Source: Acidithiobacillus sp.
GTDB lineage: Bacteria > Pseudomonadota > Gammaproteobacteria > Acidithiobacillales > Acidithiobacillaceae
DNA: 57,777 bases
Reading direction: 5' to 3'
NCBI RefSeq assembly: GCF_023255755.1
Contig: NZ_JAGDVS010000151.1
Location: 1 to 57,777 of the forward strand
Shown here: positions 18,537-23,606 of the stretch, piece after piece
Layout of the letters: every line of letters begins with the position of its first letter
How positions within the stretch are numbered: the stretch's first letter is position 1
Made by a program: the position numbers and the translations under genes
Notes under the pieces: model-generated
What the model was told of the DNA's origin: nothing
Database searches by the model: none
The model's input: the letters and a program-made list of their open reading frames with translations, nothing else

Positions 18537-19400
18537 GTGACTGCACAACGCATTGATGGCAAAGCCATAGCTAAAAAAATACAGGCGGATGTCACCCATC
18601 GCAGTCAGGCTTTTCTCCAGCGTTATGGACGCTCCCCTGGTCTTGCGGTAGTACTGGTCGGGGCCGATCCTGCGTCTCAGGTCTATGTGCAGAAAAAGCG
18701 GGATACCTGTGCTTCAGTGGGCATCCGCTCTTTTTCTGCCAATCTTCCTGCAGACAGCACGCCACAACAACTTCTGTCTCATATTACCGAACTAAACGCT
18801 AATAATGCCGTGGATGGCATCCTGGTACAGTTGCCCCTTCCGTCGCACTTTGATCCTGAAGAAATCATTGAGGCCATTGCCGTCGAAAAGGATGTCGATG
18901 GTTTTCACCCCTATAATGTAGGCCGCCTTGCGCTGCGCGCGCCACTGCTGCGCTCCTGTACGCCCGCCGGTATCATGACCTTGCTTCAGGAAACCGGCAT
19001 AAAGGTCAGGGGGAAAGAAGCGGTGATTGTCGGCGCATCCAATATTGTCGGGCGGCCCATGGCGCTGGAACTCCTCCTGGCCGGGGCGACGGTGACCGTC
19101 TGCCACCGCTTCACCCGCGATCTCGCAGCCCATGTGGGACGCGCCGAACTGCTCGTCGCGGCGGCAGGTAAACCGGGACTGATACCCGGCGAGTGGATTC
19201 GTGAGGGAGCAGTGGTCATTGATGTAGGAATTAACCGTCTTCCGGATGGGCGTCTCACCGGCGATGTGGACTTTGCTGGTGCGGAGCAACGTGCGGCGTG
19301 GATCACTCCGGTCCCCGGTGGGGTCGGACCCATGACGGTAGTCACACTCTTGCAGAACACCCTGATTGCGGCAGAGCAACGCATGGGGATAAGCACGTGA
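18537..19400 (+). CDS. folD: Methylenetetrahydrofolate dehydrogenase/cyclohydrolase
   Basis: [28 protein letters not shown] motifs. Confidence 0.98.
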
Positions 19401-21502
19401 CTGAGACACCTGCCCAGCAAAAATCTGATGCGGCGCCCCCTCTGGACAATCCCGATCTCTATTTCAACCGCGATCTCAGCATCCTCGAATTTAACCGGCG
19501 GGTACTCGCACTGGCAGATGATCCACACGTGCCACTGCTGGAGCGTTTACGTTATCTGACCATTGTTTCCAACAATCTGGACGAATTTTTTGAAGTCCGC
19601 ATGGCAGGGCTTCTGCAGCGGCGCAAATTCGGCGCTGGCCCCTCGGGGCCGGATATGCTCGGACCTAATCTCGAAATTGAAGCAGTGGCCAGAATGGCCC
19701 ACGAAATTATCTCTGCACAGTATCGCTGCCTGAACCAACGACTGCTACCCGCCCTGGCCAAAGAGAATGTCCGTCTGTTGCGCCGACGCGAGTGGCGGGC
19801 AGCGCAAAGACGCTGGATCAGCAGTTATTTTCAGAGTGAAGTCCTGCCTCTGCTCACGCCCCTGAGCCTTGACCCGGCCCATCCCTTTCCCAAGGTACAG
19901 AATAAGGGGCTGAATTTCGCCATCGTCCTGGAGGGTCAGGACGCCTATGGGCGGCGCAGCCCCATCGCCATTGTGCAGGCGCCGCGGATACTATCGCGTA
20001 TCATCCAGATTCCAGCGCATCTGGCCGGCCCGCATGATTTCGTGTTTCTCTCTTCTATCATTCACGAGCATGTGCAAACCCTCTTTCCGGGCCTGGCCAT
20101 TCAGGGCTTTTATCAGTTCCGGGTAACCCGCAACAGCGAACTCTTCGTGGATGAGGAGGAGGTGGATAATCTCCTCGATGCGCTCGCTGATGAATTGCCG
20201 ATGCGCCCTTTTGGCGAGGCAGTACGGCTGGAAGTCGCCAATAACTGTCCGCGCGAGGTGGTCGACTATCTCTTGAAGCATTTTGATCTTGGTGAGGATA
20301 ATCTTTATTCGCTGCTGGGGCCCGTGAATCTGTCACGGCTGGCAGCCATCATCGACATGGTTCCTCGCCCCGACCTGCTCTTCCCGCCCTTTGTACCCGG
20401 CATGCCCTCAGTCTGTATGCGCCCGGAAAACATATTTGCGCAACTCCACGAGGCACCCATTCTCCTCCATCACCCATACCAGAGCTTCAATCCGGTGCTG
20501 GATTTTCTCCGCCAGGCGGCCAATGATCCGCAGGTCATCGGTATCAAGCAGACGTTGTACCGCACCACCCCGGACTCTCCTATCATTGATGCACTGATAG
20601 AAGCGGCGATGGCGGGCAAACAGGTCACTGCCGTGGTCGAGCTCAAGGCCCGCTTTGACGAAGCCAATAATATCCGGATGGCGGAGCGCCTGGAAGAGGT
20701 GGGTGTGCAGGTTGTATACGGCGTGGTCAACCACAAGGTGCATGCCAAGATGATCCTGGTCTTGCGCCGTGAAGAGGATGGCATCCGCCTCTACGGGCAT
20801 CTGGGTACCGGCAATTATCATCCCCGCAATGCGCGGATTTATACCGATCTCAGCCTGCTCACCGCAAATCCTGATATCACGGCGGACATGAATGACCTGT
20901 TCATGCACATCACCGGTATGGGCAAGGCGCCGCAACTCCGTTGCCTGCTGCAAAGTCCCTTTACGATGTTCAGCGGGATACGTGATGCCATCGAGACGGA
21001 GACCCGGCACGGCGTGAAAGGCCGCATCATCGCGCGGGTGAATGCACTGGTCGAGCCAGACCTGATTCGCGCCCTATACCGGGCCTCCCAAGCTGGAGTA
21101 GAAATCGACCTGGTGGTACGCGGCGCCTGTGCCTTACGTCCCGGCATACCGGGCGTCTCTGAGCATATCCGGGTACGTTCCATTGTCGGTCGTTTTCTCG
21201 AACACAGCCGCGTCTATTACTTCGGGAATGACGGACATTCCAAGCTTTGGATATCCAGTGCCGACTGGATGGGACGCAATCTCTTTCGCCGCCTGGAAGT
21301 GGCGGTACCCATTCTCGACCCCGACTTGCGCGCACGCGTACTCAGGGAAACCCTTCAGCTATACTTGGAGGACGATTGTAACGCTTGGGCCATGCGTGCC
21401 GATGGTGTCTATGATTTTTTGCGTAAGACCCCGGATGCCACCTGTAAATCGGCTCAGGACCGCTTACTGGAACACTATGAGAGGACTAGTCACCATGTGT
21501 GA
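19397..21502 (+). CDS. ppk1: Polyphosphate kinase 1
   Basis: [22 protein letters not shown] phospho-His motif, [19 protein letters not shown] start overlaps the folD stop (GTGA). Confidence 0.97.
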
Positions 21503-21514
21503 CAGGATTTCGTC

Positions 21515-22153
21515 GTGATCCGGGTTCTGGTGCTCAACAGTAAGGGGGGTGCCGGAAAAACGACGGTCGCCACCAACCTCGCCAGTTTGCTGGCACTGCG
21601 CGGCTCGGTACTTCTCGCTGACCTGGATCCGCAGCACTCGTCCAGCACCTGGGCCGAGCGGCGGTCGGAGCACTTACCAAAGCTGTCCGTCATTGCCGAT
21701 GCTGACCGGGATTTCCGCGATTATCCGCCGAGTGATTTCATCGTCTTTGATGCCCCTGCTGGTCTGAAAAAAGGGCGCCTGGAAGACATGCTGGACAAGG
21801 TGGAGGCGCTGCTGGTACCCATCGGTCCCTCTTCTTTCGATATGGACGCCAGCCGTCTTTTCCTGGAGAAACTGGATGAGATTAAACGTTTTCGTAAGGG
21901 TAAAGTGCGCATGGGCGTTATTGCCAACCGCGTGAATGCACGTACCAAGGGTGGACAGCATCTGCAAACGTTTCTGGCAGATTTGCAGTTGCCGGTGGTG
22001 GCCACCCTGCGCGATAGCGAGCTTTATGTGCGGGCGGCGCAACTGGGCGCGGGCATAGCGGATTTGCGGGCTGCAGAAACTCGTGCGGAGTTACCGCAAT
22101 GGGCGCGGATCCTGCGTTTTGTAACGGAGAGGGGACATGGAACAAGAGCTTAA
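21515..22153 (+). CDS. Orphan short ParA/MinD-family ATPase
   Basis: Deviant Walker A NSKGGAGKTT, DLDPQ, FDAPAG; no N-terminal HTH; no parB in the window. Confidence 0.9.
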   Translation: MIRVLVLNSKGGAGKTTVATNLASLLALRGSVLLADLDPQHSSSTWAERRSEHLPKLSVIADADRDFRDYPPSDFIVFDAPAGLKKGRLEDMLDKVEALLVPIGPSSFDMDASRLFLEKLDEIKRFRKGKVRMGVIANRVNARTKGGQHLQTFLADLQLPVVATLRDSELYVRAAQLGAGIADLRAAETRAELPQWARILRFVTERGHGTRA

Positions 22154-23606
22154 ACTACAGATACTCGATCCTTCCCCTGCCGCCTGGGAAAAGATTTGCC
22201 AACATCCCCTGCTGGCGCTGGGCACAGCACCCCCCTTGCAGCTTCACGCTCTCTACTATGATAGCCGTGATGGTGTCTTGCAGCGCGCCAGGCTAGCCTA
22301 CCGCGTGCGTCGGGAAGGGAAAGAGTGGGTAGCCACTCTCAAGGCCGAAGGCCAATCCGCTGGCGGATTGCATCAGCGTCCCGAATGGAACGTCACCGTT
22401 TCCTCCGCCAGAGCGGATCTTCGGGTATTTACTGACACGGATGCTGCAGCGTTACTGGCACCCTTTTTGGATTCGGCCATGCAAGTCGTTCTCGAAACCC
22501 GTTTTGAACGGCTGGAAAGTCGGGTGGATCGCGCGGATGGCAGCCAGATACTGGTCGCACTGGATCGTGGAGAAATCGTTGCCAACGGCTTGCGCGAACC
22601 GATTCTCGAAGTAGAGTTGGAGCTGGTAACAGGAGAGGCTGCCTCGGTATTGGAGATGGGCGCGGAGCTGTGCCGTGATCTGCCACTGCTGCCCGATGGG
22701 GAGAGCAAGATGTTCCGGGGCTTGCGTCTCGCCGGACTGATACCGGCCGATGCCAGTGCGATGCGGGACAAAACGCCACCGCTACGCCACCACGAAAACG
22801 CCGGGAAGGCACTCAGCCGCCTGCTGATCCAGCAAATTCAGCAGGCACTCACCGCCGCCAGACAGCATTGGGCTGGCAACAGCCCGGAAACCTTTCATCA
22901 GTTGCGCAAAACCGTCCGCAGCTTGCGCGCCCTGCTGCGTTTCTGCCGAACCCTGGATCCTGACAAGCGTCTCGGCGGTGCCCGTCAGGAATTGGCGGAC
23001 TGGTTTCATCAGCAAAATATACGGCGTGACCATGAAGTACTCGCCACTTATTGGGAGGCATTGGCCACCGAAACAGGCACCGAGATAACCCCCCTGCGCA
23101 GATGGCTAAGCGCCCAAGCCGAGACCACGCATGCACAGCTCGGCCAGGTCGCCGCCGCGATCCTGAAGCTTTGGGCACTGCTGCTGCGCGCAGCGCTACA
23201 CAGTGACCAGGACTTACAGGACTACGTGGAAATGCATTTGCGACGTCAGGATCGCCGATTAATGGCTGCGGGAGATGCGGCCAAGACTGCCGCCAGCTTT
23301 CACGCCTTGCGCATTCGCATCAAGAACTGGCGCTATGTGATTCTGGTACTTGGCGATATGTGGCCCAGCAAAGACAGCAAAGCACTACTCAAAATGCTTT
23401 CCGCCTTGCAGGAAATCTCTGGTGCTGTACATGATGCCGACATGGCAGGACAGCATCTGGCGGGGCTGGCTACCAGCCGCAAGCACGGACTCGCCTTTAG
23501 TGCGGGGATGCTGATGGGCTATCTCCATGCCCGCGAGAGCAGACAACGCAAAAAATTCTCCAAGTATTGGGAGCGGCTGGAGAACACCCCACGGCCGTGG
23601 GGCTAA
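22137..23606 (+). CDS. CYTH (triphosphate tunnel) + CHAD domain protein, YgiF-like
   Basis: N-terminal ExExK (EQELK), EVELEL; CHAD motifs HQLRKTVRSLR, HALRIRIKNWRY, LQEISGAVHD. Confidence 0.9.
   Translation: MEQELKLQILDPSPAAWEKICQHPLLALGTAPPLQLHALYYDSRDGVLQRARLAYRVRREGKEWVATLKAEGQSAGGLHQRPEWNVTVSSARADLRVFTDTDAAALLAPFLDSAMQVVLETRFERLESRVDRADGSQILVALDRGEIVANGLREPILEVELELVTGEAASVLEMGAELCRDLPLLPDGESKMFRGLRLAGLIPADASAMRDKTPPLRHHENAGKALSRLLIQQIQQALTAARQHWAGNSPETFHQLRKTVRSLRALLRFCRTLDPDKRLGGARQELADWFHQQNIRRDHEVLATYWEALATETGTEITPLRRWLSAQAETTHAQLGQVAAAILKLWALLLRAALHSDQDLQDYVEMHLRRQDRRLMAAGDAAKTAASFHALRIRIKNWRYVILVLGDMWPSKDSKALLKMLSALQEISGAVHDADMAGQHLAGLATSRKHGLAFSAGMLMGYLHARESRQRKKFSKYWERLENTPRPWG

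Follow-up and report, generated by a model that had tools for sequence, protein, structure and literature searches.

An orphan ParA-type ATPase encoded between ppk1 and a CYTH-CHAD gene in Acidithiobacillus, a candidate positioner of polyphosphate granules

Introduction

The McdA/McdB system of carboxysomes and the ATPase ParF of TP228 are the closest described systems for the gene that is the subject of this study. It encodes an orphan ParA-type ATPase of 212 amino acids (aa) and lies in a 57,777-nucleotide (nt) stretch of DNA from Acidithiobacillus sp. (contig NZ_JAGDVS010000151.1), referred to here at its full length as the window, behind ppk1, the gene for polyphosphate kinase 1, and before a gene for a protein with CYTH and CHAD domains (Table 1). 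A preliminary description of this DNA had proposed that the ATPase spaces polyphosphate (polyP) granules on the nucleoid. The present analysis finds that the operon is real and partly published, and that the ATPase is a reasonable but unproven candidate for such a role. It is quite possible, although the chance falls slightly short of even, that in Acidithiobacillales it acts as a lineage-specific, McdA-like positioner that spaces polyP granules along the nucleoid. This reading draws on motifs, fold, gene coupling and CHAD residues as seen in sequence and structure prediction.

The locus resembles the type 2 McdA/McdB system, with its alpha-proteobacterial-type McdA of 210-228 aa, in having a short ParA without a helix-turn-helix (HTH), with the signature lysine and a ParF-like fold, and in that the gene coupled to the ATPase downstream encodes a protein that binds, or here is predicted to bind, a body in the cytoplasm. 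This is in contrast to McdA/McdB in that the partner is a folded 489-aa CYTH-CHAD enzyme rather than a small disordered McdB with a C-terminal tryptophan, no carboxysome genes lie nearby in the window while the mcdAB genes of the genome are located elsewhere, and the proposed cargo is an inorganic polymer granule. ParF and the Synechocystis protein of PDB entry 3cwq are the best structural matches of the window ATPase; unlike them, it is a chromosomal core gene product, only 20-24% identical, without a ParG/ParB-type gene or centromere partner. AlgP of Pseudomonas, PhaM/PhaF and the localisation of Caulobacter Ppk1 granules share with the proposal the nucleoid-dependent spacing of storage granules, but they either tether granules passively through DNA binding or rely on chromosome segregation, and no dedicated ATPase is known for them. 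The partner matches E. coli YgiF, a CYTH (triphosphate tunnel metalloenzyme)-CHAD protein, over the CYTH domain, and it keeps the polyP-binding residues of Chlorobium CtCHAD. CtCHAD is closest to the partner of a second ParA family (clade B, below), in which the CYTH motif is lost, whereas the window partner keeps that motif.

The same genes in the same order have been published as the Acidithiobacillus folD-ppk-parA-CHAD ('ACAci') operon (PMC6416229, PMC10892726; 2019 and 2024). In the available parts of these sources, the operon is drawn and interpreted as linking cyclic AMP (cAMP) signalling and energy status to metabolism and cell division (PMC6416229), and its conservation is noted in a study of copper resistance (PMC10892726). 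The CYTH-CHAD protein is interpreted either as an adenylate cyclase of class IV or as a factor in copper resistance, parA is labelled a chromosome/plasmid partition protein, and the same parts propose no granule-positioning role for ParA. A 2025 review, in its available text, lists the ATP dependence of polyP positioning as unknown (PMC13052382), and an excerpt of a 2026 study describes the granule-spacing mechanism as 'yet to be discovered' (PMC13081873). No ATPase is named for polyP in the accessible portions of that review or of two others (PMC11894788; PMC11407121, with zero occurrences of 'polyphosphate'). A proposal of a dedicated ParA for polyP granules was not found in the literature surveyed, which was mostly the running text of openly accessible papers. 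Partial texts on the AhCobQ deacetylase (PMC11856932) and the Herbaspirillum phosphate transcriptome (PMC8222739) yielded no link to the locus.

A core operon of Acidithiobacillales

The folD gene heads the ppk1-parA-CYTH/CHAD unit, its stop overlapping the GTG start of ppk1. A gap of 12 nt separates the ppk1 stop from the ATPase gene, which in turn overlaps the CYTH-CHAD gene by 17 nt. The preliminary description had given the coordinates and spacing of the latter three genes correctly. It had also reported that parB, minC/minE, chemotaxis, flagellar and carboxysome genes are absent, and none was seen among the window proteins scanned with Pfam (39 + 5, a subset of the open reading frames).

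An ortholog of the ATPase is present in 39 of 40 genomes of the order, one of them truncated where its contig ends. Of the 30 loci whose gene order was compared, all have CYTH-CHAD behind the ATPase and 29 have ppk1 before it, the thirtieth ending at a contig edge; the 17-nt overlap recurs in 22 of the 30. The three genes also occur together in three further genomes of the family. folD-ppk1-parA-CYTH/CHAD is therefore a tightly coupled core operon of Acidithiobacillales, and the arrangement is not due to chance within the order. Since kin are not independent, this conservation counts as one event.

The ATPase and its paralogues

The ATPase has a Walker A motif of the deviant type that includes the signature lysine (K10-GGAGK15-TT), and K10, K15, D36, D38 and D79 of the Walker A, A' and B motifs recur without exception in the other family members (305 of 305). 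Its AlphaFold model (predicted local distance difference test score, pLDDT, 93) shows a ParA/MinD fold. The best Foldseek matches of the model are 3cwq (template modelling score, TM, 0.80) and ParF (TM 0.79), and 3cwq is also the best sequence match in the PDB (E 1e-13). Since the model begins at the first beta-strand, the ATPase is predicted to lack an N-terminal HTH, which bears out the earlier description; since it ends in a short polar tail of low confidence, a membrane-targeting helix is likewise predicted to be absent. The protein scores 118 bits against the NF041546 (ParA_partition) model, below the family cut-off of 180, and its named homologues at 65-90% identity are Acidithiobacillus proteins. 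The family to which it belongs, here clade A, forms one group against the other ParAs of the genome in a quick tree (Shimodaira-Hasegawa-like approximate likelihood ratio test, SH-aLRT, 96).

The basic patches that had been pointed out are present, comprising K85-K86-G-R88, K124-R-F-R-K-G-K130-V-R132 and R139/R143/K145. R143 aligns with the arginine of 'YDGRT' in T. thermophilus Soj, which we take to be a DNA-binding residue. A basic residue stands at this position in 88% of the 33 rows from Acidithiobacillales and, among Burkholderiales, in 92% of the 13 CHAD-linked and 93% of the 81 unlinked rows, but in 16% of 126 unlinked rows of the class sample; DNA binding is therefore probably not a fixed trait of the family. 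K145 is kept in 73% of the Acidithiobacillales members and in 100% of the CHAD-linked Burkholderiales members. The idea that the K124-R132 patch distinguishes CHAD-linked proteins was discarded, because its frequency among unlinked Burkholderiales members is similar (K124 84%, R127 84%, K128 75%).

Seven other family members were found in the genome at E < 1e-6, and six of them were placed by their neighbours. These include McdA, which lies in the carboxysome cluster together with an McdB-like gene, MinD between minC and minE, FlhG after flhA-flhF, and Soj after gidB; the remaining placed ParAs adjoin repA or parB and are plasmid- or ParB-linked. The seventh appears Mrp-like by sequence. We also note that the mcdA gene and its McdB-like neighbour, which encodes 88 aa ending in RVWPD, lie in an alpha-carboxysome cluster (L525:3847-4736, G000:C58). 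The window ATPase is the member of the genome to which no cargo is assigned; the ATPases of carboxysomes, division and flagella are encoded by other genes. The paralogue nearest to it is McdA of the carboxysome cluster (family-profile E 2.7e-33), and polyP granules and carboxysomes touch in other autotrophs according to the available part of PMC13081873, which would suit a spare role in the positioning of carboxysomes, chromosomes or chemoreceptor arrays. Such a role is very improbable, given that the genome has genes elsewhere for Soj, MinD and FlhG and for McdA with its Trp-terminated McdB-like neighbour, and that no carboxysome or parB family recurred as a direct neighbour in 227 clade-A loci.

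The CYTH-CHAD partner

The partner matches the CYTH domain of E. coli YgiF (PDB 5a60, E 1e-23) and 6qv5 (E 7e-8). Residues E2, E4, K6, R56, R58, K69, R125, E158, E160, E162 and K191, which make up the presumed active site (ExExK motif and tunnel residues), are conserved in the alignment, and the ExExK motif is kept in 25 of 27 window-type proteins. Because this YgiF-like active-site pattern is intact, the protein is likely an active triphosphatase or cyclase, whatever its part as an adaptor. In the CHAD domain, H254, R257, R261 and R297 are invariant and R399 nearly so among 28 aligned proteins. Together with Y400, these residues correspond to H253, R256, R260, R296 and R418/Y419 of CtCHAD, in which mutation of the cavity residues lowers polyP binding (PMC6537752, available text).

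The preliminary description had cast the protein as a granule-bound adaptor or activator. The retained polyP-binding residues count in favour of granule positioning. Known activators of ParA-type positioners use a basic, disordered N-terminal peptide according to the accessible parts of PMC11407121 and 10.1101/2022.06.09.495121; such a peptide is not present in the partner, whose ExExK motif begins at residue 2, and this counts against such positioning. A near-terminal tryptophan was considered as an McdB-like feature and set aside, as it also occurs in the proteins of L181 and L190, which have no ParA in their 1.5-kb flanks.

The same features bear on an alternative in which the ATPase is a nucleotide switch within a polyP module. 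It would bind or sequester CYTH-CHAD or PPK1 and tune polyP or triphosphate turnover, in the manner of FleN/FlhG with a transcription-factor partner. A translationally coupled partner whose CYTH pattern is intact, the missing activator peptide, the association with sixA, ppk1 and ppk2 described below, and the low frequency of a basic R143 in unlinked class-sample members agree with a switch, as does the published interpretation of the operon as a cAMP/energy-status unit, in the part of PMC6416229 available. We regard a switch as improbable, since R143 and K145 are kept at the frequencies given above in Acidithiobacillales and in CHAD-linked Burkholderiales, the fold is closest to the nucleoid-binding ParF type, and the loss of the CYTH motif from the clade-B partner fits a scaffold role better than enzyme control.

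Clade A outside the order

Clade A is present in 123 of 301 Gammaproteobacteria and in 103 of 201 genomes of the order of genome G623, which we take to be Burkholderiales. No match outside the class of the window was found among those listed for 301 phylum-wide genomes at E 1e-40, a search that addressed Alphaproteobacteria and in which the top candidates were scored. The set collected outside Acidithiobacillales comprises 318 rows with 316 distinct sequences, six duplicate places having been dropped; flanks extend 1.5-6 kb, and some span only 1.5 kb or end at a contig edge. The Burkholderiales sample contributed 90 loci fetched of 115 listed, of which 10 are linked, one being in the genome on which the draw was centred.

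A CYTH/CHAD gene adjoins the ATPase on the same strand in 13 of the 318 rows, compared with about 0.09 expected under a rough random-neighbour model. These rows represent two lineages rather than 13 events, as 12 fall in one 19-row subclade that includes Methylophilaceae and L092 stands apart. By our own arithmetic under crude assumptions, two lineages beyond that of the window have a probability near 0.004. The arrangements vary in their polyP genes. In the Burkholderiales genome G820, ppk1-parA-CYTH/CHAD occurs in the same order as in the window (Pfam-checked); G642, G698 and G745 carry sixA-parA-CYTH/CHAD-ppk2, the last two genes being Pfam-checked; the Methylobacillus/Methylovorus loci L084, L104 and L118 show sixA-parA-CYTH(/CHAD); and L092 has the order CYTH/CHAD-parA. 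sixA alone adjoins the ATPase in six genomes of two more families (f16 and f220). On the clade-A tree the linked state needs 5 changes. A single origin of the Acidithiobacillales and Burkholderiales linkage followed by many losses is not rejected by the approximately unbiased test (p 0.08), nor is it established; the two groups stand apart in the best tree. The deep branches (Acidithiobacillales, the sixA group and basal Burkholderiales) are those that carry polyP-type neighbours.

A few loci deserve separate mention. G698 carries two separate sixA-parA-CYTH/CHAD copies (L437 and L465). In G620, a small membrane-protein gene directly follows the ATPase (L146:1106-1486) and by eye resembles the DUF6394 gene behind the Methylobacillus CYTH-CHAD, which suggests that a CHAD gene was lost from the same layout. 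Tandem pairs of clade-A ATPases occur in L140, L501 (G800) and L512 (G668).

A second ParA family paired with CHAD

A CHAD search of the same genomes revealed another ParA family, clade B, behind 18 of the 30 best CHAD loci. Its members are Soj-like, of about 247 aa, align with clade A over the N-terminal half only and do not occur in the genome of the window. When metagenome loci were chosen by the ATPase alone, CHAD lay directly upstream in 63 of 80, and in 55 of the 63 with a flank of at least 600 nt. In the class sample, CHAD adjoins the clade-B ATPase in 30 of 40 carriers, and ppk1 is adjacent in one more; PPK1 and CHAD are each encoded in 37 of the 40. Several clade-B loci have ppk1, ppk2, ppx, sixA, pit, phoR or pstS in their surroundings.

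The clade-B partner is a full-length homologue of the window CYTH-CHAD over both domains (hhalign 100%). None of 49 clade-B partners carries ExExK, compared with the near-universal retention in the window type. The fold combines a triphosphate tunnel and CHAD, and the closest structures are those of Chlorobium CHAD, including the polyP complex 6QVA (TM 0.92). Clade B is, on sequence comparison, an unrelated ParA family encoded behind a homologous, catalytically eroded CYTH-CHAD gene, so that two ParA families, unrelated to each other, are coupled to the same partner architecture. This pairing is the strongest general support for the polyP idea, but it concerns another ATPase. With the Burkholderiales loci, it shows an association with polyP genes that extends beyond close relatives of the window. 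We tentatively suggest, with more doubt than belief, that polyP granules have dedicated ATP-driven positioning machines which arose at least twice, from two unrelated ParA families, with CYTH-CHAD as a folded adaptor that decayed to a pure docking module in clade B.

At five clade-B loci that have no CHAD neighbour, a gene for glycogen/starch phosphorylase comes after the ATPase gene on the same strand (L226:5004-8334, L227, L236, L237 and L240). The phosphorylase was Pfam-checked in L226 and L236 and has the same 835-aa length in the other three. This could reflect a switch of cargo to glycogen granules. In L431 (G234), the clade-B ATPase lies directly behind ppk1, and no CHAD was found in the genome.

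Granule positioning weighed

If the window ATPase positions polyP granules, ATP-bound dimers would, by analogy with the cycle of the family, cover the nucleoid by means of the basic residues near R143/K145/R166. ATP hydrolysis and local release may then be triggered by CYTH-CHAD on the granule, by PPK1, or by polyP on the K124-R132 patch. The ATPase gradient that results would hold granules at a distance from one another and divide them between the daughter cells.

The distribution of clade A provides most of the points that weigh against this proposal. Outside the order, 305 of 318 rows (96% of loci) have no adjacent CYTH/CHAD gene, and PPK1, PPK2 or CHAD was found in none of 97 further class-sample loci within about +/-4 kb. 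The commonest direct neighbours are ubiD (26 of 227 loci) and a 2Fe-2S reductase (19 of 227), and no small McdB-like partner recurred among the direct neighbours of these 227 loci. In the class sample of 301 genomes, PPK1 is encoded in 85 of 123 clade-A carriers and 86 of 178 non-carriers, and CHAD in 51 of 123 and 39 of 178, respectively; these tallies include the unpublished genome G075, on which alone no claim rests, and leave G254 out of the CHAD scoring. Among PPK1-positive genomes, the co-occurrence of clade A and CHAD is not significant (p 0.067). As many as 38 of the 123 carriers are without PPK1, and 27 of these also without PPK2, so clade A overall does not depend on polyP synthesis by known kinases. 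A whole-protein search for PPK1 in ten of the PPK1-lacking carriers, six of them single-contig genomes of 93-100% completeness, gave no match in any. The premise that orphan ATPases are encoded beside their cargo thus agrees with the loci of Acidithiobacillales and of the two Burkholderiales lineages and is not borne out for clade A as a whole. The tree and neighbourhood comparison that had been suggested as a check divides in the same way: linkage recurs outside the order, and the majority is unlinked. A role as positioner would be specific to the lineage, because elsewhere the majority of clade-A ATPases must have a different cargo or none at all.

Further counterpoints come from within the order and from other bacteria. 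G038 (L221), of the same order, has ppk1-fumC-CYTH/CHAD without a clade-A ATPase, and the presence of folD or fumC in the operon means that housekeeping passengers do occur. In the available parts of the sources, granule positioning uses AlgP in Pseudomonas (PMC9239181) or rests on chromosome segregation (PMC3806658), while Synechococcus spaces its granules without any ParA and independently of McdAB (PMC13081873). The sister family of the order retains ppk1-fumC-parA-CYTH/CHAD in G039 (L222); with fumC inserted behind ppk1 in both, G038 and G039 form a natural pair for a comparison of granule layout.

These observations also allow the ATPase to be read as a passenger, namely the local representative of a widespread family of orphan ParAs with a cargo that has nothing to do with polyP, co-transcribed with ppk1 and CYTH-CHAD only because of old gene order. 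The unlinked majority, the carriers without either kinase, the housekeeping neighbours elsewhere (ubiD, a reductase, htpG, ilvD and btuB) and the company of folD and fumC are all expected of a passenger. They are opposed by the recurrence of the linkage in two further lineages with different polyP genes (ppk1, ppk2, sixA, CYTH/CHAD) on either side, by the polyP-type neighbours of the deep tree branches and by the same pairing in an unrelated ParA family, and we consider a passenger unlikely, although a serious contender. As regards the unlinked members, one clade-A subgroup lies directly behind ubiD (L043:3-3275 and 25 other loci, with 21 group labels), and a 2Fe-2S/FAD reductase gene follows in 19; this neighbourhood is a lead to the cargo of the unlinked majority.

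Granule positioning by the window ATPase matters in that the locus offers a defined ATPase, partner and cargo in bacteria that are cultured and non-pathogenic, which makes the question of granule spacing and inheritance directly testable. If it is true, an inorganic polymer joins the cargo list of ParA/MinD ATPases, with a folded enzyme acting as the adaptor. If it is false for the window, the comparison still isolates a large orphan ParA family, and the clade-B pair is the stronger candidate.

Gene features and surroundings in the window

The features of the operon are collected in Table 1. A longer ppk1 start at 19298 was rejected, as it would overlap folD by ~100 nt and the family models match from residue 5-10 of the form starting at 19397. 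The sigma-70-like site upstream of folD is a consensus match only, because 4 such sites were found compared with 3.0 expected in shuffled sequence; counts of promoters and terminators in the window are near the shuffle level. A scan for Pho boxes gave 5 matches at 3 mismatches compared with 12.25 expected, none of them upstream of the operon.

Table 1. Features of the folD-ppk1-parA-CYTH/CHAD operon in the window
Feature	Position	Strand	Basis and remarks
Sigma-70-like promoter match upstream of folD	18360..18388	+	TTGACA-17-AAGAAT, 10/12 consensus matches; pattern scan
folD	18537..19400	+	Pfam THF_DHG_CYH and THF_DHG_CYH_C; first gene of the coupled unit
ppk1, polyphosphate kinase 1, 701 aa	19397..21502	+	TIGR03705, 885 bits (cut-off 466); four PP_kinase Pfam domains
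parA ATPase (clade A), orphan, ParF/McdA-sized, 212 aa, GTG start	21515..22153	+	CbiA/AAA_31
CYTH (triphosphate tunnel)-CHAD protein, 489 aa	22137..23606	+	Pfam CYTH, residues 34-194; CHAD, residues 233-442

An SOS mutagenesis cassette is situated at 27670-33468 on the minus strand, with lexA and a SulA/ImuA-like gene (Pfam) followed by genes that are presumably imuB-like and dnaE2-like. Convergent with the CYTH-CHAD gene, and coupled to pepN, is a minus-strand open reading frame of 126 aa (23619-23999) that has no Pfam or NCBIfam match. Upstream of folD, resistance-nodulation-division (RND) efflux genes occupy 12454-18293 on the plus strand, and the available part of PMC6416229 describes them as a possible route of metal-phosphate export.

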